64,000 bases of DNA, from the IMG/VR virus record IMGVR_UViG_3300045988_174992, one strand, 5' to 3'. Positions 932 to 46,578 of the stretch are shown here, piece by piece. The stretch is from a virus. The notes under the pieces were generated by a model. The model saw only the letters and a program-made list of their open reading frames with translations. It searched no databases and was not told the origin of the DNA. Within the stretch, counting starts at the first letter, position 1. Each line of letters begins with the position of its first letter. The translations under genes and the position numbers were made by a program.

Positions 932-1762
932 ATGAAAGTAATTGATAGTCAAACAGCAGAGATTTTAAGTTTAGGTGAAGCAACACTTGAGGAAGGTAAG
1001 AAGATTGTAGAGATTGCAGGTAGAACTTGCTATAAATCATTGAATCTTATAACAGAAGGTAGTGCGGAAAAGTTTGTAAATAGAATGATTGAATCAGAAC
1101 ATCTGTCAACATTGGAACATTGTACTATCTATCTTAAGTTACCAAGAGAAAAGAGAGATGATGCATTGTTCTTTTCATACAACAAATATAGCGAAGTAAA
1201 TAGTGATGGCAATTATTGTTATGTTACTACCAACTATAGAGTAATTATTGAAAACGAAATGGAAGATGTACTTAAGTATCAGTGTGCTTATGAACCAATA
1301 AATCATGTCAGACGAATTACAGTACGAATGATAACCAATCGCCAGATTGCAAATGAGTTTGAACGACACCGTGTATTCAGTTTCAACCAGGAATCATCTC
1401 GTTACTGCAATTATGGTAAAGATAAGTTTGACAATGAACTTAAGTTCTTGAAACCATCATTTGGAAATTTCTTGATTTCAAATGAAATATATGATGAATG
1501 GGTAAAGCAAATGGAACGTGCTGAATACTCATACCTTAAGTTATGTAGGATGGGTTGTAATGCACAAGAAGCAGCTACAGTACTTCCAAACTCTACAGCA
1601 ACAGAGTTGGTGATGAGTGGTACAACAAAAGATTGGGAGCATTTCTTTGATCTACGTATGAAAGGTCTTACTGGTAAACCACACCCATTAGCTTATGATT
1701 TGGCAAATAAGATATATTTGTTGTTCAAAGAGCAAGGTGTCAAGATCTATCCAGAAGATTAA
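932..1762 (+). CDS. thyX: flavin-dependent thymidylate synthase
   Basis: RHRVFSFNQESSRY matches the ThyX signature RHRxxSxxxxSxR. 276 aa. Confidence 0.9.
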   Translation: MKVIDSQTAEILSLGEATLEEGKKIVEIAGRTCYKSLNLITEGSAEKFVNRMIESEHLSTLEHCTIYLKLPREKRDDALFFSYNKYSEVNSDGNYCYVTTNYRVIIENEMEDVLKYQCAYEPINHVRRITVRMITNRQIANEFERHRVFSFNQESSRYCNYGKDKFDNELKFLKPSFGNFLISNEIYDEWVKQMERAEYSYLKLCRMGCNAQEAATVLPNSTATELVMSGTTKDWEHFFDLRMKGLTGKPHPLAYDLANKIYLLFKEQGVKIYPED

Positions 1763-7541: not shown

Positions 7542-8150
7542 TCAATCAATATCAAATAAATTATCATTTTCTACATAACTTCCAAGTGAACAAAATGCAT
7601 CTTCATTCACTTTACTAAGTTCTTCTTTAAATTCATTAAACAACTTCTGTGCACCATCAGGCATCATCTTAACAAAAGCTGCCTTATCATCATCTTTGAT
7701 AGCTTGTCTAACTTTAGTAGCTGATATACCATCTACGGCAGAACTTGTTTCATCTCTTTCAATAACAAATACTTTGAAATCATCAGGAAAGTCCTTCAAA
7801 TATTTCTTATTGCTGGCCATTGATTTATACATCTTTTCTCTATCAGTACCACAACCCCAAAGATGGGCAGAATATCCTTTTTTAGCTAATTCTTCTCCTA
7901 TCTTATCTATAGCAGCATTTTTTACCCAAATAATATCTTGATAGAAATCTTTACTTCTCAGACAAGTATCTATTTCTTTCTTTATTAAATCATCAGAAAA
8001 TGGGTGTTTAGAATCAAATTTAGTGTTATGAATAAGACATAACACTGTTGGGTACCCATTTTCTTTATATAATGCTTCAAGAATTGATTGGTGACCTAAA
8101 GTAAATGGTTGGGTACGTCCAACCATTATATTGACATCTTTCTTCTCCAT
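7542..8150 (-). CDS. nicotinamide/nicotinate mononucleotide adenylyltransferase (NadM/NadR-type cytidylyltransferase fold)
   Basis: GRTQPFTLGH resembles the GRFQPFHxGH motif. C-terminal ISATKVRQ resembles ISSTxxR. Confidence 0.7.
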   Translation of the reverse strand: MEKKDVNIMVGRTQPFTLGHQSILEALYKENGYPTVLCLIHNTKFDSKHPFSDDLIKKEIDTCLRSKDFYQDIIWVKNAAIDKIGEELAKKGYSAHLWGCGTDREKMYKSMASNKKYLKDFPDDFKVFVIERDETSSAVDGISATKVRQAIKDDDKAAFVKMMPDGAQKLFNEFKEELSKVNEDAFCSLGSYVENDNLFDID

Positions 8151-8152
8151 AA

Positions 8153-8521
8153 TTATCTGAATAATCTATGAAATTCTTGATTATTTTCAATGAAGTCAGG
8201 ATGCCACATTTCAGTACCTCTACCAGTTGCTGCAAATTGTACAAAGTCATTTTCATCCTGATCCCATGCAAGTATCTCACACCATTTAGCTTTTGGGTTG
8301 TAAGCTTTGATTGTAGCATCACAATCGGCAAGGAATTGATCTTTTGACTTTCTTGCCAAATTTGTCACCATTTCTATATAGATAGGACCAAAGCTTTCTC
8401 TCATCCACTTTCCTTCATGTCCAATAAGCTGAATTCTATCTTTGAACTTTGAAGGATCATTGTTTTTAGCCTCTTCATACCTCTTCATATTTATAAACCT
8501 CACCTTTAGCTTTAGCTTCAT
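8153..8521 (-). CDS. hypothetical protein
   Basis: 122-aa ORF. The start may be the internal MKRYEE at 8488, and a 35-codon ORF (8475..8582) could be a separate upstream mini-gene. Confidence 0.55.
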   Translation of the reverse strand: MKLKLKVRFINMKRYEEAKNNDPSKFKDRIQLIGHEGKWMRESFGPIYIEMVTNLARKSKDQFLADCDATIKAYNPKAKWCEILAWDQDENDFVQFAATGRGTEMWHPDFIENNQEFHRLFR

Positions 8522-8607
8522 CTATCATATATGATGTTATCTGTTGACAACTTTCATCAACACATTTTGTTAAGATCTTCATAACTTTATAATATTAAAT
8601 TCTTTAT

Positions 8608-9015
8608 TTAAAAATCTGGATTTGTACGTATACTGAATGATAGCGATTGAACTGGCATACTATCAGCTGGAATTCCCATGGTCTTTGCAAGTTCTTTGTT
8701 TAATTCTAGACAAGAATTCCATTGATTCTTATCTATTTCCTTTCTTCTATCAATATCCTTTTGCTTATATTCCTGACCGGTTTCATCATACATCCTGCAT
8801 AATGCATCATAGAATTTGTCAATTTCTTCTTTCTTAGAAATTTCACAACGATACATATAGTCAAAATATTTCTTATAGTTCTTCTGCCTCTTTATAGGAA
8901 ATGCCGCAGAAATAGTAAAATCAGTAAAATACTTATTGATAATCTCTCTATTCTTTGATATTTGGGCATTAGAATCAAATCCTGCTTCAGTAATATATTC
9001 AGTTAAGTTTTTCAT
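8608..9015 (-). CDS. hypothetical protein with CTS-like leader
   Basis: N-terminus MKNLTEYITE|AGF. 135 aa. Confidence 0.65.
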   Translation of the reverse strand: MKNLTEYITEAGFDSNAQISKNREIINKYFTDFTISAAFPIKRQKNYKKYFDYMYRCEISKKEEIDKFYDALCRMYDETGQEYKQKDIDRRKEIDKNQWNSCLELNKELAKTMGIPADSMPVQSLSFSIRTNPDF

Positions 9016-9058
9016 TCTTTTTTATTCAAATCGATTTAAGTAAAAATAGATTTTATGA

Positions 9059-9093
9059 GAATTGGACAACTATCAAAGATTGTTGTCCAATTC
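9059..9093 (-). terminator. hairpin (candidate terminator)
   Basis: GAATTGGACAAC (9059..9070) pairs with GTTGTCCAATTC (9082..9093). It spans the stop of 9073..9336, and the T-run is weak. Confidence 0.35.
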
Positions 9094-9336
9094 ATAGAAT
9101 GCTCGATATCCACATAACAAAAATATTCCTATATAATAGATATAGAAGAATCCAATCCAAATATCAAACAAAATCAAAAATGGTAATGATATTATCAAAA
9201 TGAATGGAAAGAATTCAATAAATATTTTTGTTGCCCATATAAACAAGAAGGTTATCCCAATTACCCATCCAAAAATATTTGATGACAACCTGTCAAATTT
9301 CTTAAGTTTGCTATTTATCAGTGATTTCCAATCCAT
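9073..9336 (-). CDS. small integral membrane protein
   Basis: 87 aa, mostly hydrophobic (2-3 predicted helices by eye). Confidence 0.55.
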   Translation of the reverse strand: MDWKSLINSKLKKFDRLSSNIFGWVIGITFLFIWATKIFIEFFPFILIISLPFLILFDIWIGFFYIYYIGIFLLCGYRAFYELDNNL

Positions 9337-9547
9337 CTTTCTTCTCTTTCTTTTTCTTTTCTCTCAATTCTAGATACTTAATTACATAAAACAACCAACT
9401 TACAACAAAGAACATAAAAATATATGCTGTATATTGTATTGGTAATATTACAGAGTAAAATAATAAAATGACAATATTGACAATCATCAAATTATACCAT
9501 TTTGTACTCCAATATGTTTTTTGGCCAAAATACTGTGAATCATCCAT
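9311..9547 (-). CDS. small integral membrane protein
   Basis: 78 aa with two hydrophobic stretches and a basic C-terminus. Confidence 0.55.
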   Translation of the reverse strand: MDDSQYFGQKTYWSTKWYNLMIVNIVILLFYSVILPIQYTAYIFMFFVVSWLFYVIKYLELREKKKKEKKDGLEITDK

Positions 9548-13457: not shown

Positions 13458-14711
13458 TTAGTTACTGCCATTCATCATATTCATGATGATTTCTTTCTTT
13501 TTTGGAGTCATATTTTCTAATATCTTATCAGTTGCATCTTTCAAAGTCATCTTTACTGTTGATAGAGAAACACCTTCATTTTCCGCTAATTCTGATACTG
13601 ACATGCTGTAAGGCATGCCAACACCATATCGTTTCTTCATCATTCTCTTTGCAGTAGGTGACAATGGTTCTAACAATTCATCTATAGCATTCCTCAAGCT
13701 AGATATACGTTCTTCTTCATCTAACTTATTGTCTTCAATGATGAATTCATCATTAGCCATCTTGCTTATATCATTATCATGATAGCAATCATCTGTATAA
13801 GGATTGATTCCATCTAATCTTATTATATCAGCTAATTTTGTTCCTTTACCAGCATTAGGTACTCTTACAACTTGACCTTGTCTTGATATATCTACTAATA
13901 TGCTTGCACGAATCCATTGAAATGCAACAGAAGCAAATACTGCAGTCTTTACATTCTTATCAACCCAAGCATAGAATTCTGATGTATTGTTGAATCCATC
14001 GACAGGTAATTTGCTCAATGTTTCATCAAGAAGCTTATCATAAGTAAATCCTTCTTTTATTATGCTCTTAGCTTTTTCATAGCATATAGGACTATCCTCA
14101 TCACATTCTAGCTTTATCTTTTGCTTGATAGAATTTCTCAGATTTGCTTTAGATGTATCAAATCTGTCGAATGCCGCTATCAATCCTTCATTACCAGATT
14201 GAATCAAATCATCAAATGGCATACCAAGATTCTGATAACGTTTAGCACAGTTTACAACTAATTTAAGATTGTTCTTTAAGAATATATCTCTATTTTCATC
14301 ACAGAATACTAAATCATCACATTCATTTTGTGGATGCTCTATATATTGCTTCTTTACTTCATTGAAGTATCTGTCTATATTGTTGTCAAAAGTCTTATCA
14401 GTATACTGCTTTACTAAACTTGCTCTTGCTTTTTTCTTAGCGGCAAGATATAATGTAGTTGCATCTGTTCTAGAAATAAATGGAGCTACTCTCATAGCTT
14501 CATCTATATAAGTACAAATGATATCCTTTTCATGACAATCCCTTATAGATCTTATTTCATCCTTCATTAACTGAATCCAATCTGCGAGGAAATTATCTTC
14601 TTCTATACCTAACCAAGGGCCAAATACAGGATATTTCTTTTTCAATGCTTTTACAAAGTCAACAATACGCTTTGTATTTGTTTTATTTATAGTTACTTTA
14701 ATACGTGGCAC
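13458..14711 (-). CDS. sigma-70-family RNA polymerase sigma factor (phage-encoded)
   Basis: Region 2: [49 protein letters not shown] is region 2.3/2.4-like. C-terminal HTH: [27 protein letters not shown] start. Confidence 0.8.
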
Positions 14712-22671: not shown

Positions 22672-23979
22672 TTATTCAGCTGCCTTAATATTTATTCGTT
22701 CTTTTATTCTCTTCAGAATCTGAACTGTTGGTTCAATCTGCTCAATAATCTCATCCATAGGCTTGTATGCCATAGGAGACTCATCTAATGTTGACTTGTT
22801 GACAGAAGTTGAACAAACATCCTTCATTTCTTCGACAAATTCATCCATAGAAAGATTTGCCTTAGCAGCAGAACGTGACATCAATCGACCGGCACCATGA
22901 GGAGCAGTACAATTCCATTCAGCATTTCCTTTACCTACACAAATCAATACACCATCTCGCATATTGATAGGAATCACAAGTTCACGTCCATAAGCGGCAT
23001 TGACAGATCCTTTACGAATAATCATATCGTCAAAGTCAATGTAGTTATGCATTGTATTGATGACACGTGCCATAGAAGCACCTTTGACAATCTTAGTATA
23101 GATTTCTGTCATCTTATCCGAAATAAGCAAATGATTGTACTTGGCATAAGTCTGTGCAATTACCATATCAGTAAGATAGCCAATCAGATTCTTACCATTC
23201 AGATAGCCTGTTGGAACAGATGATACAAAGTCTTCCTTTGCATTCTTAATTCGCTCATTCCATTCTGACTTAGGATACATATCCTTTATCTTTTCAATAT
23301 GCTTTGCCCATTCAGAACTATCAACATGATAAGGCTTGTTTGCAACATTCATCCAGTACTTTGCTACCTTCAAACCAAAGTTGCGAGAACCACAATGTAT
23401 CATTATATATCCATTACCTTCGTCATCAGTATCATAAGACAAGAAATGATTGCCACCACCAGTAGTACCTAATGACTTCCAAAAAGTACCTTCATCCATA
23501 CCAATTCGGTTCAGCATATCGGAAATGTACTTTTCATTTACATTTACATTGTTTACAAAATTGGTTGTAGCAACAGCTCTGTCAATAGCAGTATTGCACA
23601 TCTTGTAAAACATCTTCTCATCAGCAATCTTCTTATCATAAATAGTGAATCCAGTAGGAATATCCTTCTTCCATCGATGTTCAAGCAATGCATAAGATTC
23701 CTCTGGACATGGCTTTGACATCTTGATGCAAGTTACCTGACAACCAATATCAACACCTACATGGCTTGGATTTACCATTGGATTATCCTTATCAATAGTA
23801 GAAGAGAAGCCAATTGTTATCGACTGCCCCAAGTGGATATCCGGCATTATTCGTATTTTCTGATCCTTGAATGCAGGACAGTCACAGATACTGTAAACCA
23901 TCTTCAATGCATCTTCTTCAACTGTCTTTGCAAAAATCTTGCAATCCTTATTGTACTTTCCAATTATATTGTATTCCAT
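22672..23979 (-). CDS. rtcB: RNA-splicing ligase RtcB (3'-phosphate/5'-hydroxyl RNA ligase)
   Basis: GVDIGC, GGGNHF, HCGSRNFG and APHGAGR motifs in RtcB order. 435 aa. Confidence 0.85.
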   Translation of the reverse strand: MEYNIIGKYNKDCKIFAKTVEEDALKMVYSICDCPAFKDQKIRIMPDIHLGQSITIGFSSTIDKDNPMVNPSHVGVDIGCQVTCIKMSKPCPEESYALLEHRWKKDIPTGFTIYDKKIADEKMFYKMCNTAIDRAVATTNFVNNVNVNEKYISDMLNRIGMDEGTFWKSLGTTGGGNHFLSYDTDDEGNGYIMIHCGSRNFGLKVAKYWMNVANKPYHVDSSEWAKHIEKIKDMYPKSEWNERIKNAKEDFVSSVPTGYLNGKNLIGYLTDMVIAQTYAKYNHLLISDKMTEIYTKIVKGASMARVINTMHNYIDFDDMIIRKGSVNAAYGRELVIPINMRDGVLICVGKGNAEWNCTAPHGAGRLMSRSAAKANLSMDEFVEEMKDVCSTSVNKSTLDESPMAYKPMDEIIEQIEPTVQILKRIKERINIKAAE

Positions 23980-26965: not shown

Positions 26966-26996
26966 ATTAAAAAGAGATGCTTGTTTTAAGCATCTC
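26966..26996 (-). terminator. rho-independent terminator
   Basis: GAGATGCTT / AAGCATCTC hairpin around the polymerase stop codon, with a T-run on the minus strand. Confidence 0.6.
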
Positions 26997-28278
26997 CAAA
27001 TAAGTCAAATTGTACTGTACCATTGCTATTCAACAATGGGAATTTCATTACTTCAAGAAATCTGTTCAATGGATCAAGAACATTCTTTTGCCATTGAACC
27101 GCTTTATCACATGGTGGTGCCCAAGATGGAAGCTCACCAGATGGATATCCAAAGTAATCTGTTTCAGCCTTCTTTGTACTTCCTAATCTTATATTGTAAT
27201 ACTTTACTTTCTGTCCTTGTACAATACGAAGATTTCTCTGATTGTTCTTCTTTGCCAAATAGTTATATCTTGCTGCACATTTTACTGATACTGGAGTCTG
27301 TTTTGCAAACATCAAATCTTCTTCATCACACAATACATATTTCTTGTAATTACCAACATTAATTGACTGTGAAATATCTTCAATAGGAGCAGCCCAGAAT
27401 TTCTTCTTCCATTTATCCAATTTACTGTTGAAATAGAGAATATATTCTTCTTTTGACATTTTACCAGTATCATAAACCAATGACCTTGTCATATCAGTAA
27501 TGATTTCCTTTGCAAGCTTAGGAGAAGTTGTCTTAATAAGTTCAATTCCAACACCAGTAATCTTTGAAGGTGTAAACCATTTGCCTTTTGAATAAGACAT
27601 GGCCTTCAAATATTTCTTTTTCTTCAATGTAATTGTTGCTTCAGAAACAGTTTCCAATTCAAACTCATGAATTGAATGACAATGACGTGGATTGTACATA
27701 TCATTCATCCATTCTGTATTCTGCTTATCAAGAAACTCCTTATTGAATTTCAATATCCATTTGATCTTGTCATCTCGTTCTGGAATACTTGCTAAAGTTT
27801 CTGGTGTCCAACATCTGAAGAAATCACCATATTGGGTATACACAGAATCTGTATCTGAGTATTCACTAATATGCTGTTGCCTAAACCAATCATGCTTTGA
27901 CTCATCAAGTTCAAATCCAAATTTTTCCCACAAATCCTTTCTTTGCCAAATATCTTCATGGAAAAACTCTTCAAGTCTATTCCACATGAATTTTGTCAAA
28001 TTTCTTGCCTCGCAGGTAATATCGGAAGCGCACCTCATGTCGTAGAAATAGAAGAATCTGTTTGCACATGCACCGTACGCCGAGTTATTTAAAAGCTTAC
28101 TGCATAATTCCAACATTGAATTCTCTTCAATAAGATGTTCCAAGTCCTCTTTATATGCTTTAAGCTCTTCCAATGAAAGTGAATATATGTCCCTTCCATC
28201 AAGCTTATCTTTCATAAATTGCTGACACTGCTCAGAGAAAACTTTTTTTTCTCCATATTTCTCTACATTATATTCCAT
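26986..28278 (-). CDS. family-B DNA polymerase, C-terminal (palm/thumb) fragment only
   Basis: KLLNNSAYGACANRFFYFYD is motif B as in T4 gp43 (KLLINSLYGA). YSDTDSVY is motif C. No Exo motifs or motif A. The ORF starts ~60 aa before motif B. Confidence 0.8.
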   Translation of the reverse strand: MEYNVEKYGEKKVFSEQCQQFMKDKLDGRDIYSLSLEELKAYKEDLEHLIEENSMLELCSKLLNNSAYGACANRFFYFYDMRCASDITCEARNLTKFMWNRLEEFFHEDIWQRKDLWEKFGFELDESKHDWFRQQHISEYSDTDSVYTQYGDFFRCWTPETLASIPERDDKIKWILKFNKEFLDKQNTEWMNDMYNPRHCHSIHEFELETVSEATITLKKKKYLKAMSYSKGKWFTPSKITGVGIELIKTTSPKLAKEIITDMTRSLVYDTGKMSKEEYILYFNSKLDKWKKKFWAAPIEDISQSINVGNYKKYVLCDEEDLMFAKQTPVSVKCAARYNYLAKKNNQRNLRIVQGQKVKYYNIRLGSTKKAETDYFGYPSGELPSWAPPCDKAVQWQKNVLDPLNRFLEVMKFPLLNSNGTVQFDLFGDA

Positions 28279-28280
28279 TA

Positions 28281-29348
28281 TTAAATTCTATTTATATATT
28301 CTTTTACTTGATTAATAGTAAAAAATTCAAGATAATTCAAATTATTTCTTTTTGCACATTCTCTTTTCTCAACATCTTTAATAGTCCATGTTGTTATAAT
28401 TTGTGGTAATTTCTTCCAATGTTTATATTTCCTTTTAAGCCTTTCTAATATTACTTGATCTTTAACTGAATTTTTATCATAGGGATTACTACCATGTGTG
28501 TAAAATCCTTGATATTCTATAAACAAATCTTTTGATGGTATGTAAAAGTCACATTTATATGGGTACCTGATCTTATCATAATATTGCCTTATTATATCAG
28601 GATATATTTCTTTCAATAAATTATAACATTCATTTTCTGATTTAGAATTTCTTTTATCCAAAGTACCATTCTTCCTCATTGTAAGATATCCCTTTTTTTG
28701 TACTTCTTTAGATATAGAACTTGCAAACTTTTTGTATTCTTCTGTTTTAGCATAATTATCTACACCATAATGTTTCAAAAAAGTTTGTTTTTTCTTTTCT
28801 GTTATCTTGTTTCTATCTTCTTTAGAAATATATGACCATCTTTCTTTTTGAATATCCGATAAATATGTTTCTCCATATTTATTTTTTATCAATTCAGGAA
28901 TTTTCTTTCTAAACTCTTTGTTACCTAATATAGAATTTGAACCATATTTCTTTTTACAAGTTTCTTTTCTCTTATCTATAAACTCTTTTACACTTAATGT
29001 AGATTTGACCCCATATTTATCTATAATGGATTGCCTCATGTTTTGCAATTTTTCTGGGTCATGTTGTTGACAATAAGATGAACAATATTTTTTCAGACCA
29101 TCTCTATTCCCATAAGACTTTATTTCATTTATGAAAGGAATTCTCTTTCCACAAAGTTTGCAAGTTAATGGTTTATCCAAACCATGCTTTATCAAATAAA
29201 ATGCCTCATATATATTATCTACATTTTCAAATCTAGTTTTAAGATATTCTATTTCTTCTGGAAGTACTTTGCCATATTTTGCTTTTCTATATAGCATGTT
29301 AGTATTCTTCCAGTATTTTGATATCAATACTTCATCTGTTACCTCCAT
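28281..29348 (-). CDS. free-standing endonuclease candidate (Vsr/DUF559-like PD-(D/E)XK C-terminal domain)
   Basis: C-terminus SKSENECYNLLKEI...YKCDFYIPSKDLFIEYQGFYTHG fits the S..E...L....DF.....L.IE..G..H pattern. N-terminal CxxC plus four KYG[VSE] repeats. Confidence 0.5.
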   Translation of the reverse strand: MEVTDEVLISKYWKNTNMLYRKAKYGKVLPEEIEYLKTRFENVDNIYEAFYLIKHGLDKPLTCKLCGKRIPFINEIKSYGNRDGLKKYCSSYCQQHDPEKLQNMRQSIIDKYGVKSTLSVKEFIDKRKETCKKKYGSNSILGNKEFRKKIPELIKNKYGETYLSDIQKERWSYISKEDRNKITEKKKQTFLKHYGVDNYAKTEEYKKFASSISKEVQKKGYLTMRKNGTLDKRNSKSENECYNLLKEIYPDIIRQYYDKIRYPYKCDFYIPSKDLFIEYQGFYTHGSNPYDKNSVKDQVILERLKRKYKHWKKLPQIITTWTIKDVEKRECAKRNNLNYLEFFTINQVKEYINRI

Positions 29349-29355
29349 ATATTAG

Positions 29356-29386
29356 AATATAGAAAATGGACACTACTTTGTTCAAA
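29356..29386 (-). promoter_or_regulatory. phage promoter embedded in a terminator hairpin
   Basis: Reverse complement reads TTTGAACA-N14-TTCTATATT. The -10 box ends 7 nt before ATG 29348. Confidence 0.45.
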
Positions 29387-29397
29387 GCAATGTCCAT
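29366..29397 (-). terminator. hairpin terminator
   Basis: ATGGACA/TGTCCAT plus CTTTG/CAAAG stems downstream of 29418..29792, followed by T-rich sequence. Confidence 0.5.
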
Positions 29398-29417
29398 TTC
29401 ATTTACAAATAAAGGAC

Positions 29418-29792
29418 TTAGATGCAGTCCTTCAAGAAGTCAAGCTCATCATCTGTCAAACCTGTTACCTTAGCATTAGGGAACAATGTGTTGTGGATCT
29501 TGACTGCAATCTTGATCTTTCGAGCTAGAACAGCCATAGACTGAGCTGTGGTATTCACCTTATTGAGAATCTTGACTGGATCAATTGCTTTCAAATTAGT
29601 AGCAACATCTGTGGTATTTGTGATACCCAAGTCAAGTGAATTCTCGAGATCATTCTGCATATTACGATAGTCCTGTACCATCTTAGCTACATCCATCTCA
29701 GACTGTGTCTGAATTGATCGTGTTGCGTTCTTTACACGAATATCCTTTACTTGCTTTGCACTTCCACCAATAATTGACTCAAAACTCTGCAT
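29418..29792 (-). CDS. hypothetical protein
   Basis: 124-aa ORF after promoter 29855..29883. Confidence 0.6.
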   Translation of the reverse strand: MQSFESIIGGSAKQVKDIRVKNATRSIQTQSEMDVAKMVQDYRNMQNDLENSLDLGITNTTDVATNLKAIDPVKILNKVNTTAQSMAVLARKIKIAVKIHNTLFPNAKVTGLTDDELDFLKDCI

Positions 29793-30739: not shown

Positions 30740-32070
30740 AACTTTTAGAAAATTTTTATGATATTTCTATTTTTATAAATAATTGAAATTAATTTATATA
30801 AAATACTATATTAAATTATAAGATATAAATTTATTCCTAATATATGAAACTTAAGCTAACACAACAAATTATCATAGGGCAGAAGCATAAGAATTATGCT
30901 TCACTTGATATACTGTGTTGGCTTTCTAAGAATCTTTATAACCAAGCTTTGTATCAGATAAGACAGCAATATAGTAAAGACAAGACTTATCTTGGTTATT
31001 CTAAGCTATATAGACTATTATATGATACAAAGCAACCAGATTATTTTGCTTTACCATATACTCAATGTAGCCAGCAAATACTACGTTTAGTTGATAAAAC
31101 ATATACTTCATTCTTTAAAGGAATAAAGTCAGCTAAGAATAAAGGAAAGAAAGTCAGACTTCCTAAGTATAAAGATAAAGAAAATGGAAGGTATGTATTT
31201 GTATATACCAGTCAATGTATCAAGGTAAAGGATGGCATTCTAAGACTTAAAGTGAACAAGACTGATTTCATTTACTTTAATTGTGACAAGGAAGATGTAT
31301 GCCAAGTAAGAATAGTACCTAAAGGAAATCATATAGTAGTAGAAATAATATATCAAGTAGAATATGAACTGAAGAAAGATAATGGAAATTATGCTAGCAT
31401 AGATCTTGGAATTGACAATATAGTTACTTTAGCTTCTAACTCAGCTCAATCCGTTCTTTATAATGGAAGACCATTGAAAGCAATAAATCACTTTTACAAC
31501 AAGAGAAAAGCTGAGTTGCAATCTAAGGTAAAGACTAAGTCAACTAAGAGAATAAAGCGTTTGAATGGTAAGAGAAACAGAAAGGTAAAAGACTTCATGC
31601 ATAAGCTAAGTCATGCCATAGTATGTTACATGGAATCAAACAACATAAATACATTGATTGTAGGAAAGAATGTTGGTTGGAAAGACAGTATCAAGCTAGG
31701 GCATGTTGTAAATCAAAACTTTGTTTCAATACCATACAATATGCTAATACAGATGCTAGAGTATAAGTGTAAGCTAAAAGGTATCACATTCATTGTGGTA
31801 AATGAAGCATATACTTCAAAGTGTAGTTTCATGGACAATGAAAATATTTGCAAGCACAAAGTATATGCTGGATCTAGAATAAGAAGAGGATTGTTTGTAA
31901 CAAAGAATGGACTTAGACTAAATGCAGATATAAATGGAGCTTTGAATATAATGGTACTAGGTTGTACTAAGATAAATGTAAAACGTGATGCTCTAGTAAT
32001 AGAGCCAGCGAATATGAGGTTTGTAGTGAACCCAATTAGATTGACTTTAAGTCAATAGAATGAAATTTTA
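30740..32070 (+). mobile_element. TnpB-only IS200/IS605-like element (boundaries approximate)
   Basis: tnpB sits alone between the minus-strand promoter (30702..30730) and the first fibre gene. No tnpA seen. Ends not defined. Confidence 0.35.
30844..32058 (+). CDS. tnpB: TnpB (IS200/IS605-family OrfB, RNA-guided RuvC-like nuclease)
   Basis: RuvC triad in order: ASIDLGIDN (D), VVNEAYTSKCS (E), LNADINGALNI (D). 404 aa. The TSKCSF...RRGLF subtype lacks the second CxxC pair. Confidence 0.85.
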   Translation: MKLKLTQQIIIGQKHKNYASLDILCWLSKNLYNQALYQIRQQYSKDKTYLGYSKLYRLLYDTKQPDYFALPYTQCSQQILRLVDKTYTSFFKGIKSAKNKGKKVRLPKYKDKENGRYVFVYTSQCIKVKDGILRLKVNKTDFIYFNCDKEDVCQVRIVPKGNHIVVEIIYQVEYELKKDNGNYASIDLGIDNIVTLASNSAQSVLYNGRPLKAINHFYNKRKAELQSKVKTKSTKRIKRLNGKRNRKVKDFMHKLSHAIVCYMESNNINTLIVGKNVGWKDSIKLGHVVNQNFVSIPYNMLIQMLEYKCKLKGITFIVVNEAYTSKCSFMDNENICKHKVYAGSRIRRGLFVTKNGLRLNADINGALNIMVLGCTKINVKRDALVIEPANMRFVVNPIRLTLSQ

Positions 32071-32137
32071 TTTGAAATTTATTTGTTTATGTTATTTTTA
32101 TATACATAAAATAAATAAATAAATAATAAAATACACT

Positions 32138-35965: not shown

Positions 35966-36250
35966 ATGGCAAATACAACATTTCCTATTCATAAACTATT
36001 TAGAGTATATGAAACATTAGACCAGTTTGATGCAGAAGCAAATCACCCAGAAAATAAGATATGCTTCATCAAAGATAAGAGAATAATCTATGCTAATGGG
36101 GTTGAATATACCAATGAGCAGATGTATAATGATAATATAACTGATGATATCAAAGATGCTGCTAAATTCAAGACTGTTTATAATGCATTATTAGATGAAC
36201 TGAAGAACAGAAACTATATGGAGTTATCCAAAGATGGTGAAAATATTTAA
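35966..36250 (+). CDS. stand-alone fibre N-terminal adaptor module
   Basis: 94 aa. LFRVYETLDQFDAEANHPENKICFIKDKRIIYANGVEY matches the N-termini of the three LRR fibre genes but lacks an LRR part. Confidence 0.5.
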   Translation: MANTTFPIHKLFRVYETLDQFDAEANHPENKICFIKDKRIIYANGVEYTNEQMYNDNITDDIKDAAKFKTVYNALLDELKNRNYMELSKDGENI

Positions 36251-37433
36251 AAACTATGATACATTATCCCAATTCAATGATGAATCTATACACCCAGAAA
36301 ACAAGATATGTTTGATAAAAGATAAAGGTGTAATATATTCAAATGGTGTACAGTATTCACATTCTAAAATGCATATAATACAAGATATTGGAGATTCAGA
36401 TAACATAGTAGATAAGTTTAATGAATTGAGAAAAGGTTTATTAGAATCAAATCTAATGGCAGCTAGGACACCACATACTCTCATTTACTGGACAGGAGAT
36501 TCTAATACTATAGATATTAGTGGTACTACATATACAGCTGAACCAGATAAAGTAAACATAGATGGGGTAGAATACTACCAGTTAAAATTAGATAAAGATT
36601 TAAATAATAGTTTTAGTAATAATACTTTTACTAATTTAATATTTAAAGATGTTGATACAAGTAATGTTACTAATATGAATAATATGTTCGGTTATTGCAA
36701 TGCTCTTACTTCTTTGTATGTGTCTGAATTTGATACAAGTAATGTTACTAATATGGCTAATATGTTTTATTATTGCGAGGCTCTTACTTCTTTAGATGTA
36801 TCTAAATTTGATACAAGTAATGTTACTAATATGTTTAATATGTTTGGTAGATGCTGTGCTCTTACTTCTTTAGATGTATCTAAATTTGATACAAGTAAAG
36901 TTACTAATATGAGTAATATGTTCAATAATTGCAGTTCTCTTACTTCTTTGGATGTATCTAAATGGGATACAAGTAAAGTTACTGGTATGTATAGTATGTT
37001 TAATTATTGCATATCTATTACTTCTTTAGATGTATCTAAATTTGATACTAGTAAAGTTACTGATATGTCTAGTATGTTTCAACATTGCAGATTACTTACT
37101 TCTTTTGATGTGTCAAATTTTAATACAAGTAATGTTACTAATATGAATACTATGTTCTCTTCTTGCAGTGCTCTTACTTCTTTGGACGTATCTGGGTGGG
37201 ATACAAGTAATGTTATTTATATGGGTTATATGTTCAGGAATTGCTGGGCTCTTACTTCTTTGGACATATCTGGATGGGATACAAGTAATGTTACTAATAT
37301 GAATAGTATATTCTCTGGTTGCAGTTCTCTTAAAACAATAAGAATGGTAGGTTGTTCACAGACTACTATAGATAAGATAAAAGCACAACTATCTACAGAT
37401 GGTATAACTGGATGTACTATTGTAACAGAATAA
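36234..37433 (+). CDS. BspA/DUF285-type leucine-rich-repeat fibre (receptor-binding) protein, paralog 1
   Basis: About 10 repeats of F..C..LTSLDVS.FDTS.VTNM..MF. Conserved N-terminal module and a C-terminal module ending LKTIRMVGCSQTTIDKIKAQLSTDGITGCTIVTE. Confidence 0.7.
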   Translation: MVKIFKNYDTLSQFNDESIHPENKICLIKDKGVIYSNGVQYSHSKMHIIQDIGDSDNIVDKFNELRKGLLESNLMAARTPHTLIYWTGDSNTIDISGTTYTAEPDKVNIDGVEYYQLKLDKDLNNSFSNNTFTNLIFKDVDTSNVTNMNNMFGYCNALTSLYVSEFDTSNVTNMANMFYYCEALTSLDVSKFDTSNVTNMFNMFGRCCALTSLDVSKFDTSKVTNMSNMFNNCSSLTSLDVSKWDTSKVTGMYSMFNYCISITSLDVSKFDTSKVTDMSSMFQHCRLLTSFDVSNFNTSNVTNMNTMFSSCSALTSLDVSGWDTSNVIYMGYMFRNCWALTSLDISGWDTSNVTNMNSIFSGCSSLKTIRMVGCSQTTIDKIKAQLSTDGITGCTIVTE

Positions 37434-37470
37434 ATATAACAGAATAAAATTTTATATATAAAAAGAAATC

Positions 37471-38217
37471 ATGGCTAAATTATTTAGAAATTACAATACA
37501 TTGGTGGAATATGAAGCAGACACAAATAAACCTGTAAACACAGTTTGTTTCATTAAAGATGCAAAGGTCATCTATGTAGATGGCATACGATATTCATATA
37601 AGCAACTTGACTATCTACCACCTGCTATTAATGAAGCAGAAGCATTAGAATATATGGGTAAGATTATTAAGAATGCCCAGGAAGTAGGATTGATTGGTAT
37701 ACCAGTACCTAAACTAGTACCTGGTATATACTGGACAGGAGATTCTAATATTATAAGTATTAGTGGTACAGATTATACAGCTGAATCTGATAATATAACT
37801 ATAGATGGTGTAGAATACTATCAGTTAAAATTGGATAAAGATTTAGATAATGATTTTTACAACTTTAATTATAATTATTTTACTAATTTAATATTTAAAG
37901 ATGTTGATACAAGTAATGTTACTAATATGAGTAATATGTTCGAAGGTTGTTGGGATCTTACTTCTTTGGATGTTAGTAATTTTGATACAAGTAATGTTAC
38001 TGATATAGGATTTATGTTTAGTGATTGTGGTTCTCTTACTTCTTTAGATATGTCTGGATGGGATATAAGTAACGCCATCAAAATGAACAAAATGCTCACT
38101 GGTTGTAGTGCTCTTAAAACTATCAGAATGGTAGGTTGTTCACAGACTACTATAGATAAGATAAAAGCACAATTATCTACTGATGGTATAACTGGTTGCA
38201 CTATTGTAACAGAATAA
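37471..38217 (+). CDS. BspA/DUF285-type LRR fibre protein, paralog 2
   Basis: Same N- and C-terminal modules, with about 3 LRR units. Confidence 0.7.
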   Translation: MAKLFRNYNTLVEYEADTNKPVNTVCFIKDAKVIYVDGIRYSYKQLDYLPPAINEAEALEYMGKIIKNAQEVGLIGIPVPKLVPGIYWTGDSNIISISGTDYTAESDNITIDGVEYYQLKLDKDLDNDFYNFNYNYFTNLIFKDVDTSNVTNMSNMFEGCWDLTSLDVSNFDTSNVTDIGFMFSDCGSLTSLDMSGWDISNAIKMNKMLTGCSALKTIRMVGCSQTTIDKIKAQLSTDGITGCTIVTE

Positions 38218-38250
38218 ATTATAACAGAATAATTATAACAGAATAAAATC

Positions 38251-39225
38251 ATGCCGAAAATATTTAGAAACTACAATACATTATCTCAATTCAATACTGA
38301 ATCCACACATCCAGAAAACAAGATATGTTTCATTAAAGATAATGGAGTAATATATTCAAATGGTGTACAGTATTCACCTTATAAAATGGACACTATAGCT
38401 AATATAGAAGATTCAGATAACATAGTAGATAAGTTTAATGAATTGAGAAAAGGTTTATTAGAATCAAATCTAATGGAAGCTAGAACACTACATACTGTCA
38501 TATACTGGACTGGAGATTCTAATACTATAAACATTAGTGGTACTACATATACAGCTGAACTAGATAAAATAAATATAGATGGTGTAGTATACTATCAGTT
38601 AAAATTGTATAAAGATTTAGATAATAATTTTTATAAATTTAGTAATAATACTTTTGCTAATTTAATATTTAAAGATGTTGATACAAGTAAAGTAACTAAT
38701 ATGAATAATATGTTCCATTATTGCAATGCTCTTACTTCTTTGGATGTATCTAAATTTGATACTAGTAAAGTTACTAACATGTCATGGATGTTTGAATATT
38801 GCATGTCTCTTACTTCTTTAGATTTGAGTACATGGGATACTAGTAAGGTTACTAATATGAATGCTATGTTCCTTTATTGTAGTGCTCTTACTTCTTTGGA
38901 TTTGAGTGGATTTGATACTAGTAAAGTTACTGATATGAGTTTTATGTTCAGTAATTGCAGTTCTCTTACTTCTTTGGATTTGAGTGGATTTGATACTAGT
39001 AAAGTTACTGATATGAGTTTTATGTTCAGTAATTGCAGTTCTCTTACTTCTTTGGATTTGAGTGGATGGGATACAAGTAATGTTAATAATATGCGTAATA
39101 TGTTCAGTGGTTGTAGTGCTCTTAAAACAATCAGAATGGTAGGTTGTTTGCAGACTACTATAGATAAGATAAAAGCACAACTATCTAGTAATGGTATAAC
39201 TGGATGCACTATTGTAACAGAATAA
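38251..39225 (+). CDS. BspA/DUF285-type LRR fibre protein, paralog 3
   Basis: Same modules, about 6 LRR units including a perfect 78-bp tandem duplication. Confidence 0.7.
   Translation: MPKIFRNYNTLSQFNTESTHPENKICFIKDNGVIYSNGVQYSPYKMDTIANIEDSDNIVDKFNELRKGLLESNLMEARTLHTVIYWTGDSNTINISGTTYTAELDKINIDGVVYYQLKLYKDLDNNFYKFSNNTFANLIFKDVDTSKVTNMNNMFHYCNALTSLDVSKFDTSKVTNMSWMFEYCMSLTSLDLSTWDTSKVTNMNAMFLYCSALTSLDLSGFDTSKVTDMSFMFSNCSSLTSLDLSGFDTSKVTDMSFMFSNCSSLTSLDLSGWDTSNVNNMRNMFSGCSALKTIRMVGCLQTTIDKIKAQLSSNGITGCTIVTE
38887..39042 (+). repeat. perfect 2 x 78-bp tandem duplication (one LRR unit)
   Basis: 38887..38964 and 38965..39042 read identically, each encoding LTSLDLSGFDTSKVTDMSFMFSNCSS. Confidence 0.85.
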
Positions 39226-45378: not shown

Positions 45379-46578
45379 TTACTCACGATATGCAGTATCA
45401 TTGTCATTTATACGAAATACTGATGGATCTGCATTTCTCTGATCTTCATCATTCAAACACTCTTTATAGAGAGAATACAACTCAGCAAATGCTTTATTCA
45501 ACTCTGGAGTATTCTTAATGTACTGAAGAACTTTGAAATTAGAATTAGTAACTTCTGATGGATTCTTCATACCATACTTAGCCATAATCTGCTTTGCTTT
45601 AAGCTTTTCATGACCAAACAATCCATTCATACTATAGAATACATCAAGCTGCTTTTCAGTAAATTTCTTCTCAAGCATCTTAACAATCATCTTCCAAAGC
45701 TTAGCAATATCTTGCTGGTCGAGTGAAGCATCTGCATCTTCTTTAGAGTCAACCTTATCAAAGATTCCCTTGCCTTCATCTCCACCACCAATAGGTGATT
45801 CACCGGATACTGAAGTCTGCTTTGTATTTCTACCTGTATCTTTACGTTCCTTATTCTGAACAGAAACTGGAATACGTACTAAGTGTGAAGTATTCTTGAT
45901 ATTTTCAAGGATTACAATGCGAATCAAATAGCTAGCATAACTCAAGAAAGTGAATGCCTTACGCTTCTTCATTTCATCTTTCAATTCTCCAGCCATCTCT
46001 TCTGCTTCAGCATTCTTTCCTCCACGCTTCTTAGCAGTCTCTTCAGAAGACTTACCATATTGGTTCATTGCAATTGTAAGACCTTCCATACCGAAAGCAA
46101 ACAAATCGTCAAGAGAGAAGCTAGACTTTCCATTGAATCCACGAGCAATCTTCCAAACCAATGGAGTATACTTCTTAGCTACAGCATCACGACCCTTCTT
46201 AGTCTTCAAATCAAGCAATATCTCATCTGGTGAAATCTCATTCTTGATAATTGCGTTGAATTGCTCTTCAGTCTGAAATACTGGTACTTCAAGAAGACGG
46301 TGAGCCTTAGCAAGTGTTCCAATCCACTTGTACAATTCCTGCAACTTAGGATCTTTTGGTTTACCCTTACCATAGAAATTTTGCAATGAGCCAAGCTCCT
46401 TCATATATGTAGCATTGTTTACAATCAACCAATTGATGATTTCTTTAGCCTCAACAGAAATGAACTTGTCTGCTGTAGTAAGATATGTCTTAAGCTTAGC
46501 AGATGGAATGAAATCCAAAGTATCATTCTGTACATCAAGTGACTTAGCTTCTGCAACAAATTCTGATAATTTCTTCAT
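45379..46578 (-). CDS. sigma-70-family protein with CTS-like leader
   Basis: MKKLSEFVAE|AKS. Region-2-like LVWKIARGF..DDLFAFGMEGLTIAMNQYG. SYASYLIRIVILENI..HLVRIPVSV. Region-4-like C-terminus QLDVFYSMNGLFGHEKLKAKQIMAKYGM. Confidence 0.65.
   Translation of the reverse strand: MKKLSEFVAEAKSLDVQNDTLDFIPSAKLKTYLTTADKFISVEAKEIINWLIVNNATYMKELGSLQNFYGKGKPKDPKLQELYKWIGTLAKAHRLLEVPVFQTEEQFNAIIKNEISPDEILLDLKTKKGRDAVAKKYTPLVWKIARGFNGKSSFSLDDLFAFGMEGLTIAMNQYGKSSEETAKKRGGKNAEAEEMAGELKDEMKKRKAFTFLSYASYLIRIVILENIKNTSHLVRIPVSVQNKERKDTGRNTKQTSVSGESPIGGGDEGKGIFDKVDSKEDADASLDQQDIAKLWKMIVKMLEKKFTEKQLDVFYSMNGLFGHEKLKAKQIMAKYGMKNPSEVTNSNFKVLQYIKNTPELNKAFAELYSLYKECLNDEDQRNADPSVFRINDNDTAYRE

Follow-up and report, generated by a model that had tools for sequence, protein, structure and literature searches.

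How does a phage replicate its DNA when the only polymerase gene in view encodes half an enzyme? The question is raised by the 64-kb stretch of viral DNA analysed here (the window; IMG/VR record IMGVR_UViG_3300045988_174992), in which the initial annotation recognized the C-terminal half of a family-B DNA polymerase (PolB) with an endonuclease gene directly upstream of it and no N-terminal half in sight. The explanation that we very much favor as a whole is a heterodimeric PolB encoded by two genes, broken at the fingertip and assembled non-covalently, with a separate selfish endonuclease beside one of them. We regard it as a real two-subunit polymerase that, judging from its sequence, is probably functional. 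The features of the locus are collected in Table 1.

Table 1. Features of the C-half locus (window coordinates)
Feature	Position	Strand	Basis or remarks
Terminator-like hairpin overlapping the C-half stop codon	26973..26997	-	10-pair stem, T-run; consensus match only
PolB C-terminal subunit gene, 430 aa (predicted)	26986..28278	-	Family matches, motifs, alignment, dN/dS
Endonuclease cassette indel, about 1.08 kb	28279..29355	-	blastn and alignments; L150
Free-standing DUF7487/Vsr-like (EDxHD-type) homing endonuclease gene, 355 aa (predicted)	28281..29348	-	Family matches, residues, models
Resident intergenic element: 17-pair hairpin and T-run overlapping promoter-like TTGAAC-18-TATATT	29356..29400	-	
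Conserved 124-aa gene, syntenic upstream neighbor of the C-half locus	29418..29792	-	No family matches

The two polymerase genes

Database comparisons confirm that the 430-aa product corresponds to the C-terminal half of a T4/RB69-type family-B polymerase and that this half stands alone as an ORF. In a profile search it matched PHROG 1918, a 382-position family of polymerase C-halves, at positions 11–370, and the full-length polymerase family PHROG 262 at positions 469–840 of 856 only. Pfam PF00136 scored above its cut-off, and the RB69/T4 gp43 chains align to it from residue ~556 on (RB69 gp43 ~556–839); identity to gp43 is only about 23–25%. It contains the second fingers helix, motif B (KLLNNSAYGA, aa 61), palm motif C (YSDTDS, aa 140), KKKKY (aa 219), the thumb and a C-terminal QFDLF tail that looks clamp-binding-like. 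As first noted, the N-half is neither next to this gene nor within the 64 kb: a pattern scan of all six frames of the window found no motif A or Exo motifs, and tblastn of the window with a phage N-half as query gave no match. Megablast of the locus against GenBank phages likewise gave none.

The source is a human-gut jumbo phage, and a 276.7-kb gut-metagenome contig, 99.95–100% identical to the window where the two overlap, bears both halves. The search outside the window for an ORF with Exo motifs and motif A, which the initial annotation had proposed, was made by reading 10 kb past the window end, and it located a 517-aa ORF on the same strand as the C-half. This gene lies at about window coordinates -8880..-7327 (7.3 kb past window position 1), 34.3 kb from the C-half gene and transcriptionally downstream of it. 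Its product carries ExoI (FSDIETE, aa 98), ExoII (GWNYYRFD, aa 200), ExoIII (YYNAID, aa 315) and motif A (DDFASLYPS), has Pfam PF03104 recorded for it, and matches PHROG 262 at positions 37–480 and RB69 gp43 at residues 109–489. A protein search with the N-half of MA9V-2 retrieved other clades and missed this one, a scan with the P0159-clade N-half alignment returned only unrelated jumbo-phage contigs, and a scan for the locus with an alignment of diverse N-halves gave nothing because no stretch is conserved enough.

The two products match different, complementary parts of PHROG 262 and RB69 gp43, and between them they hold all the catalytic motifs (ExoI–III and A in the N-half, B and C in the C-half). 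An alignment to intact relatives of 926 aa places the two ORFs end to end at the fingertip, and no part of the enzyme is absent: the N-half extends to RB69 ~489 plus 27 aa, the C-half begins about 56 aa ahead of RB69 556, and the break falls in the loop between the two antiparallel fingers helices with no residues lost. The halves overlap at the break by about 8 non-homologous residues, and there are about 8–13 non-homologous residues at the termini. Both halves are under purifying selection, with dN/dS of 0.05–0.10 over the two and 0.07–0.10 for the C-half.

The endonuclease gene and its surroundings

The gene upstream of the C-half matches Pfam DUF7487 and PHROG 3339 'homing endonuclease', and by sequence it is a predicted Vsr-like (EDxHD-type) homing endonuclease of the DUF7487 family; the Vsr-like signature first seen in it is borne out by these matches and by its EDxHD residues. 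The reported 2-nt gap between its stop and the C-half ATG is likewise correct. The protein has an N-terminal Cys4 element, KYG (DUF7487) repeats and a C-terminal nuclease domain, in which residues E11, D40, E51, H58 and D98 do not vary across 39 sequences. The D-to-E and D-to-H distances (11 and 18 residues) equal the Vsr D51/F62/H69 spacing (PMC2677866, PMC3239194), and the invariant extra Glu falls at the Vsr Phe62 position. An AlphaFold model of the nuclease domain (pLDDT 89.7, pTM 0.81) has Vsr (1cw0_A) as its top Foldseek match, with probability 0.87, TM 0.45 and an E of 0.064 that is not statistically significant. A PDB profile search with the domain did not retrieve Vsr or I-Bth0305I and gave only a weak PD-(D/E)xK exonuclease match, a sequence search of the PDB with the whole protein gave spurious zinc-finger matches only, and a literature search found no mention of DUF7487. 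Like I-Bth0305I and the EDxHD endonucleases (PMC3239194), the protein has E, D, H and D with Vsr-like spacing and a Glu at Vsr Phe62, is bipartite (N-terminal DNA-binding region, C-terminal nuclease), and is phage-borne and free-standing. Unlike them, it has Cys4 and KYG repeats in place of NUMOD/HTH modules at its N-terminus, an H-to-D spacing of 40 versus 9–28, and no sequence-level match to 3R3P.

The cassette that contains this gene is exactly absent from 95–97% identical relatives, which have about 36–40 bp of intergenic sequence instead, whereas L150, a genome from a different sample, carries it at the same site. Other relatives have DUF7487 paralogs at the N-half 3′ end, and paralogs also occur beside the major capsid gene, so that the family shows mobile behavior in both its precise presence or absence in close relatives and its multiple copies beside conserved genes. 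The insertion flanks hold no consistent target-site immunity or co-conversion signature; a 25-nt recoded patch near the insertion is unique to the window genome and is absent in the other endonuclease-positive genome. Comparison with relatives that lack the endonuclease, also suggested at the outset, found their polymerase still split and the halves still dispersed, and thus the present endonuclease copy did not separate them. Nor does this gene lie between the halves, since its upstream neighbor is the 124-aa non-polymerase gene and the N-half is 34 kb downstream.

It is nevertheless conceivable that the DUF7487 protein is not a selfish homing endonuclease but a nuclease domesticated to work with the C-half, for instance in regulation or repair. 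Even lineages that share only 59–71% identity in their C-halves have a DUF7487 gene immediately upstream of the C-half, and in the window the coupling to the C-half is translationally close, but the gene is absent in the 95–97% identical genomes, the copies at this site are 32–45% identical to each other versus 59–71% for the polymerase, and the family is multicopy, also standing beside the N-half and the capsid gene. We therefore consider a domesticated role unlikely and treat the gene as a selfish element.

The initial annotation gave the endonuclease its own consensus promoter, and with it a nearly leaderless mRNA. A TTGAAC-18-TATATT element is indeed present, and its -10 ends 7 nt ahead of the endonuclease ATG. 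The same hairpin/promoter-like element is, however, common to the endonuclease-less relatives, where it directly precedes the C-half, and the number of promoter-like matches in this AT-rich region is what chance would give (27 found versus 24.5 expected). The element belongs to the resident intergenic region and not to the endonuclease, and the near-leaderless mRNA from an own promoter does not survive the comparison. The terminator reported between the endonuclease gene and the next gene upstream is represented by a terminator-like hairpin at 29400..29363. That upstream gene, described at first as not polymerase-like, has no polymerase similarity in family searches, and its synteny extends to L004, L098 and L150.

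The split state in relatives and in known systems

As judged from the homologs found, the split form prevails in a very large jumbo-phage polymerase group and is not peculiar to this phage. There are 565 C-half homologs, and nearly all of the best 120 are 410–435 aa long. Among the best 150 representatives at 50% identity, 68 have the size of a C-half and 20 that of a full-length polymerase; stand-alone C-halves dominate the surrounding PolB sequence space. The C-half cluster has >1,100 member sequences in gut metagenomes, the stand-alone N-halves all terminate at the same position, and the intact ~926-aa gene is seen in one nested subclade. The C-to-N spacing is kept at 34–37 kb in four IMG/VR relatives, and in 635–642-kb megaphages the halves are 100–280 kb apart.

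Comparison with other split polymerases is informative. The T4-related Aeromonas/Acinetobacter phages 25, 44RR, 31, 65 and 133 have a bicistronic, fingertip-split gp43 (43A/43B; Petrov et al. 2006, 2010, as cited in PMC2988022 and PMC3061061). As those accounts present it, 43A/43B is like our polymerase in being a gp43-type family-B replicative enzyme with a fingertip break between two helices and no intein, in having a start and a stop codon for each half, and in being associated in some members with a homing endonuclease gene. It differs in that its ORFs are described as adjacent (2 bp to 3 kb) and in N-then-C order, whereas here 34.3 kb separates them, the C-half gene is the upstream one and the two belong to separate transcription units, and in that its endonuclease is GIY-YIG (seg-like) and not Vsr-like/DUF7487. 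What is new here is therefore the unlinked, order-swapped genes; the fingertip split itself is known from the T4-like phages. A two-subunit family-B polymerase without an intein is likewise described for Methanothermobacter thermautotrophicus, where its two genes are unlinked and lie at a distance of 85 kb (Kelman et al. 1999, as cited in PMC3061061); it differs in being archaeal, in having its break in the palm, some 83 residues beyond the fingertip site toward the C-terminus, and in having no endonuclease described with it. The Jug (jumbo gut) phages (PMC12880540) have genomes of 360–402 kb and encode RpoC, whereas the window phage is about 277 kb with sigma-factor-like proteins; for them intervening endonucleases are described, and not unlinked halves.

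In 'fractured genes' a split intein is accompanied by a free-standing Vsr-like or GIY-YIG endonuclease (Dassa et al. 2009, PMC2677866); the model for them predicts eventual genomic uncoupling of the halves (PMC2677866), and with them we group the split PolB of MIJ3/PA5oct (PMC6892783). Our case resembles these in that the breakage of a phage replication gene goes together with a free-standing Vsr-like endonuclease, and exactly the fractured-gene arrangement occurs at motif C in two relatives, L145 and L128 (split intein plus Vsr-like endonuclease, with IntN/IntC blocks in L145). Such cases, the inteins carried by some C-half homologs and the endonucleases at both broken ends in different relatives would be expected if the resident endonuclease had split the polymerase and the halves were rejoined by protein or RNA trans-splicing. 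At the break of the window polymerase, however, alignment to intact relatives found no intein blocks where the N-half ends or where the C-half begins, only the 8–13 or so non-homologous residues. An Rfam search of the window and L093 matched no family, group I introns included, and so gives no evidence for split introns. The endonuclease, moreover, does not lie between the halves, and the split does not depend on it, since close relatives that lack it stay split. Trans-splicing is thus very unlikely, and the preferred reading remains non-covalent assembly.

A decaying C-half remnant, in a phage replicated by an intact polymerase encoded elsewhere, was named at the outset as an alternative, and it would accord with a window that holds only half a polymerase and with the about 190 kb of contig outside the part inspected. 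It fails because no full-length copy was found in the about 84 kb of the 277-kb contig that were read. Pattern scans of related IMG/VR contigs, moreover, found exactly one N locus and one C locus in each and no intact copy, and the C-half's low dN/dS, its intact catalytic motifs, its similarly selected N-half on the same contig and the hundreds of conserved stand-alone C-halves make a remnant scarcely credible. An assembly artefact fusing unrelated contigs near 28.2–29.9 kb, a concern raised early on for what is a short-read metagenome assembly, has a negligible chance of being correct, given that the gene order is the same in ENA, Logan, NCBI and IMG/VR assemblies from different samples and that the flanks are colinear with those of endonuclease-less relatives across the junction.

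Proposed assembly and origin of the two-gene polymerase

In the two-subunit enzyme that we propose, the 517-aa subunit would supply the N-terminal domain, the 3′-5′ exonuclease, the motif A catalytic aspartate and the first fingers helix, and the 430-aa subunit would supply the second fingers helix, motif B, the motif C catalytic aspartates, the thumb and the clamp-binding-like tail. The halves of the phage 25 polymerase, gp43A and gp43B, co-purify and are active (PMC2988022), and a fingertip-split Pfu polymerase reconstitutes fully (PMC3061061); by analogy, the two polypeptides here most likely join non-covalently and rebuild one active site with no intein involved.

The selfish DUF7487 gene would have inserted downstream of the resident promoter-like hairpin element and ahead of the C-half start codon, and the C-half is thus now probably co-transcribed with it across the short stop-to-start interval. 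Endonuclease invasion of the fingertip-coding region may have created or exploited the split, with later rearrangement unlinking the halves; the location of DUF7487 genes at the 5′ end of the C-half or the 3′ end of the N-half in different relatives fits such a history. A broader version of it, which we put forward only tentatively, is that the fingertip split is the ancestral and long-kept state of the very large jumbo-phage PolB radiation, with its genes free to drift apart, that the intact ~926-aa gene is a secondary re-fusion, and that DUF7487 endonucleases homing to both broken ends made and then scattered the halves.

If the two-subunit reading is correct, an essential viral replicase can be kept for long evolutionary periods as two unlinked genes, and its stoichiometry and assembly must then be handled post-translationally. 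The locus would also be a natural and abundant case in which to study the way selfish endonucleases break and mark essential genes and perhaps scatter them. Annotators would do well to expect that a half-length 'DNA polymerase' ORF of a jumbo phage will usually be a functional subunit and not a pseudogene. Engineered fingertip splits of Pfu broaden its use of nucleotide analogs, and so natural split enzymes could be of biotechnological interest.

Finally, TnpB genes lie near the C-half in both the window phage and MA9V-2. They are only 24% identical, and we treat the shared location as coincidence and not as a sign of kinship between them.

The two polymerase genes

The gene at 26986..28278 encodes only the C-terminal half (C-half) of a family-B DNA polymerase (PolB), as proposed in the initial annotation. 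Its product matches PHROG 1918 (382 positions, polymerase C-halves only) from end to end, its match to the full-length polymerase family PHROG 262 is limited to positions 469–840 of 856, and it aligns with the RB69 and T4 gp43 chains from about residue 556 on. Pfam PF00136 scores above cut-off. The protein has motif B (KLLNNSAYGA, at aa 61), motif C (YSDTDS) and KKKKY, and it carries a QFDLF tail at the C terminus. The N-terminal half (N-half) is indeed missing from these 64 kb, where a six-frame scan found no motif A or polymerase ExoI context and the N-half of a phage, used as tblastn query, had no match. The initial description of the sequence was accurate, since the ORF, motif, spacing, hairpin and promoter-like features were all found again, including the C-half ATG 2 nt past the stop of 28281..29348.

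The C-half gene lies in a 276,731-bp metagenome contig from the human gut (ENA ERZ919512 k127_125124) that is 99.95–100% identical to the window over the stretches compared. The initial annotation had called for a search of the complete genome for an ORF with ExoI–III and motif A, and extension by 10 kb past the left window end (locus L093) located one on this same contig, with ExoI (FSDIETE), ExoII (GWNYYRFD), ExoIII (YYNAID) and motif A (DDFASLYPS). This ORF aligns with RB69 gp43 over residues 109–489 and also matches the N-half family PHROG 2062 and PHROG 262 positions 37–480, the last exactly complementary to the C-half range. The C-half, N-half and endonuclease genes all lie on the minus strand, with the C-half gene 34.3 kb upstream of the N-half gene in transcription order; the intervening genes include a block on the plus strand, so the two halves cannot form one operon.

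Features of the window, its extension and related loci
Feature	Position	Strand	Basis
Polymerase C-half, 430 aa	26986..28278	-	PHROG, Pfam and gp43 matches; motifs
Polymerase N-half, 517 aa	L093:189..1742 (~window -8880..-7327)	-	Pfam PF03104
Endonuclease, 355 aa	28281..29348	-	Pfam DUF7487; PHROG 3339 "homing endonuclease"
Hairpin with T-run	29400..29363	-	
TnpB ORF	30844-32058	+	OrfB_IS605; Cas12f1-like TNB
RtcB RNA ligase	22672-23979		
Sigma-factor-like proteins (two)	13458-14711, 45379-46578		
ThyX	932-1762		
NAD-dependent DNA ligase	L093 5911-7956, just outside window		
DUF7487 genes abutting N-half (relatives)	L124 3881-5011 and 6541-7437; L125 6542-7579; L120 7387-8559		
Intact ~926-aa PolB loci (relatives)	L106-L110, L114, L116, L127, L129, L133, L143, L144, L147		

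Break point, distribution and history of the split

Relatives with a 50–54% identical C-part carry one uninterrupted ORF of ~926 aa, and in alignments to these the N-half occupies columns 1–513, with the C-half beginning near column 505. The sequence is broken after "...EIDRLIK" and before the second fingers helix begins (a fingertip split), with no residues missing, and every stand-alone N-half recovered stops at the identical position. Only ~8–13 non-homologous residues are added at the broken ends, far too few for split-intein halves. No Rfam family (e.g., group I intron) matches in the window or L093.

Both halves are conserved, with dN/dS against 95–98% identical relatives of 0.07–0.10 for the C-half and 0.05–0.06 for the N-half. 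The catalytic aspartates are divided between them, motif A in the N-half and motif C in the C-half, and because conservation of these motifs in separate proteins otherwise makes no sense, we infer that the two proteins assemble. There is precedent in phage 25, whose gp43A and gp43B purify together and have polymerase activity (PMC2988022), and in Pfu polymerase split at the fingertip, whose separately purified fragments reconstitute full activity (PMC3061061). The pair is a real and very probably functional two-subunit replicative polymerase.

Such halves are widespread. The C-half has 565 homologues, nearly all of the best 120 of which are 410–435 aa long. Among the best 150 representatives at 50% identity from 1.84 billion proteins, 68 are C-half-sized and only 20 full length; 55 of the 68 have a Met start, no motif A, a motif C, and a motif B that falls within the first 130 residues. 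Stand-alone N-halves (460–525 aa) are equally common. Four IMG/VR genomes, 95–98% identical, share the gene order and a C-to-N spacing of 34–37 kb; a more distant relative (47% identical in the C-part, 45% in the N-part) has the order N then C, 36 kb apart; and Chryseobacterium phage MA9V-2 has only 3.5 kb between its halves, which holds a TnpB gene and two others. The halves are unlinked in megaphages too: in three uncultured 635–642-kb phages (GenBank LR756502.1, LR756504.1 and LR745206.1) they lie 100–280 kb apart on opposite strands, distances given by a single N and a single C tblastn hit each.

Fingertip splits of gp43 are well described in T4-related phages, whose two ORFs are separated by 2 bp to 3 kb and in some cases flank a GIY-YIG endonuclease (PMC3061061, PMC2988022, PMC2677866). 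Methanothermobacter (palm split, genes 85 kb apart) and Nanoarchaeum, the latter with a split intein, are known examples of unlinked PolB halves (PMC3061061, PMC2677866). A limited literature search turned up no account of a phage polymerase that is split at the fingertip and has its halves unlinked and order-swapped. According to the "fractured gene" model of Dassa et al., the halves should become uncoupled once the endonuclease is lost (PMC2677866), and the present locus fits that end state, but without an intein.

A textbook case of their fractured gene occurs in two relatives, L145 (5001-9554) and L128 (IMG/VR 3300028805_004760 and 3300021256_002164, respectively), whose fingertip is unsplit and whose PolB is instead broken at motif C: after YSDTDS, ORF1 closes with the N-terminal blocks of an intein; next comes the gene for a 420-aa Vsr-like endonuclease, and ORF3 opens with the C-terminal block of an intein (…VHN|S). 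Close C-half homologues include one with an intein (P0005) and two of 333–338 aa (P0014, P0015), which suggests that three-piece polymerases exist within this phage's own clade.

In neighbour-joining trees of the N and C parts, which carry no support values, the intact and motif-C-fractured relatives form one clade that sits inside the fingertip-split lineages, and every outgroup is split. At face value the fingertip split would be ancestral and the intact gene a secondary re-fusion; the nesting suggests either such a re-fusion or a single hot spot at which the gene was split independently many times. No split sister lineage has a C-half within 5 kb of its N-half.

The endonuclease and its insertion site

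The product of 28281..29348, correctly recognized as an endonuclease in the initial annotation, belongs to a family of at least 1,246 members and consists of a Cys4 element, KYG repeats that correspond to the DUF7487 Pfam region, and a conserved domain at the C terminus in which E11, D40, E51, H58 and D98 are invariant in 39 homologues. The D-to-H spacing of 18 equals that of Vsr D51–H69, and the extra Glu occupies the position of Vsr Phe62, the signature of Vsr-like/EDxHD homing endonucleases (PMC2677866, PMC3239194). AlphaFold models (pLDDT 83 for the whole protein; 89.7 and pTM 0.81 for the C-terminal domain) both have Vsr 1cw0_A as top Foldseek match, with weak scores (E 0.42 and 0.064, probability 0.85–0.87). 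A PDB profile search with the nuclease domain gave only a weak match, to a PD-(D/E)xK exonuclease.

Comparison with relatives, as the initial annotation had advised, shows the gene to be exactly absent from five IMG/VR genomes with 95–97% identical C-halves, in which the 124-aa gene (29418..29792 here) is followed by the hairpin, TATATT, ~36–40 bp and the C-half ATG. At the same site a different sample has a 91%-identical copy, and in phages whose C-halves are 70% and 59% identical the copies there are only 45% and 32% identical to this one. In L124 and L125, related loci, DUF7487 paralogues replace the last codons and terminator of the N-half, and L124 has another directly upstream of it; the N-halves of L124, L125 and L120 are 97–98% identical, and some of the DUF7487 genes overlap the N-half start. 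Since DUF7487 genes abut the N-half in these relatives and none does so in this genome, the polymerase's two broken ends serve as alternative endonuclease sites. Given its precise absence in close relatives and paralogues at other sites, 28281..29348 behaves, as judged from these comparisons, as a free-standing homing endonuclease. The gene is not responsible for the present separation of the halves; it is an independent mobile endonuclease parked at one broken end.

The promoter that had been assigned to the endonuclease exists as a TTGAAC-18-TATATT match with its -10 ending 7 nt before the ATG, but it is not the gene's own, since endonuclease-less relatives carry TATATT too. Judging from this conservation, the element is part of the resident intergenic region, and the cassette has inserted between it and the C-half start codon. 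Across this AT-rich stretch, promoter-like matches show no excess (27 found, 24.5 expected from shuffles).

Just past motif B, at 28012-28036 (C-half nt 243–267), a 25-nt patch holds a cluster of changes, most of them synonymous (Ser AGT to TCC and Arg CGT to AGG are among them), that only this genome has among seven close alleles. A short gene-conversion tract could account for the patch, as could recoding of an endonuclease target.

Other genes and insertions

An IS605-type TnpB-only element at 30770-32110, with no TnpA nearby, is a ~1.3-kb insertion relative to the 93–97% identical, endonuclease-less L098. Conversely, upstream of the 124-aa gene L098 has ~1.2 kb (8150-9422) with three small ORFs (113, 109 and 131 aa) that the window lacks, which marks a further indel hot spot in that intergenic neighbourhood. 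In a related jumbo phage (L151 3093-5899; ENA ERZ9426306 NODE_10, 275 kb), the gp23-type major capsid gene is directly followed by a tandem pair of DUF7487 genes and an Intein_splicing ORF.

The gene set (RtcB, sigma-like proteins, ThyX and ligase, with no phage RNA polymerase seen among the annotated genes) fits the T4-like "group 2" jumbo phages of Iyer et al. (2021). Three adjacent genes for DUF285/BspA-type leucine-rich-repeat proteins (36234-39225) contain many internal DNA repeats, with offsets in blastn self-matches that are multiples of 78 nt, and their copy number varies among close relatives.
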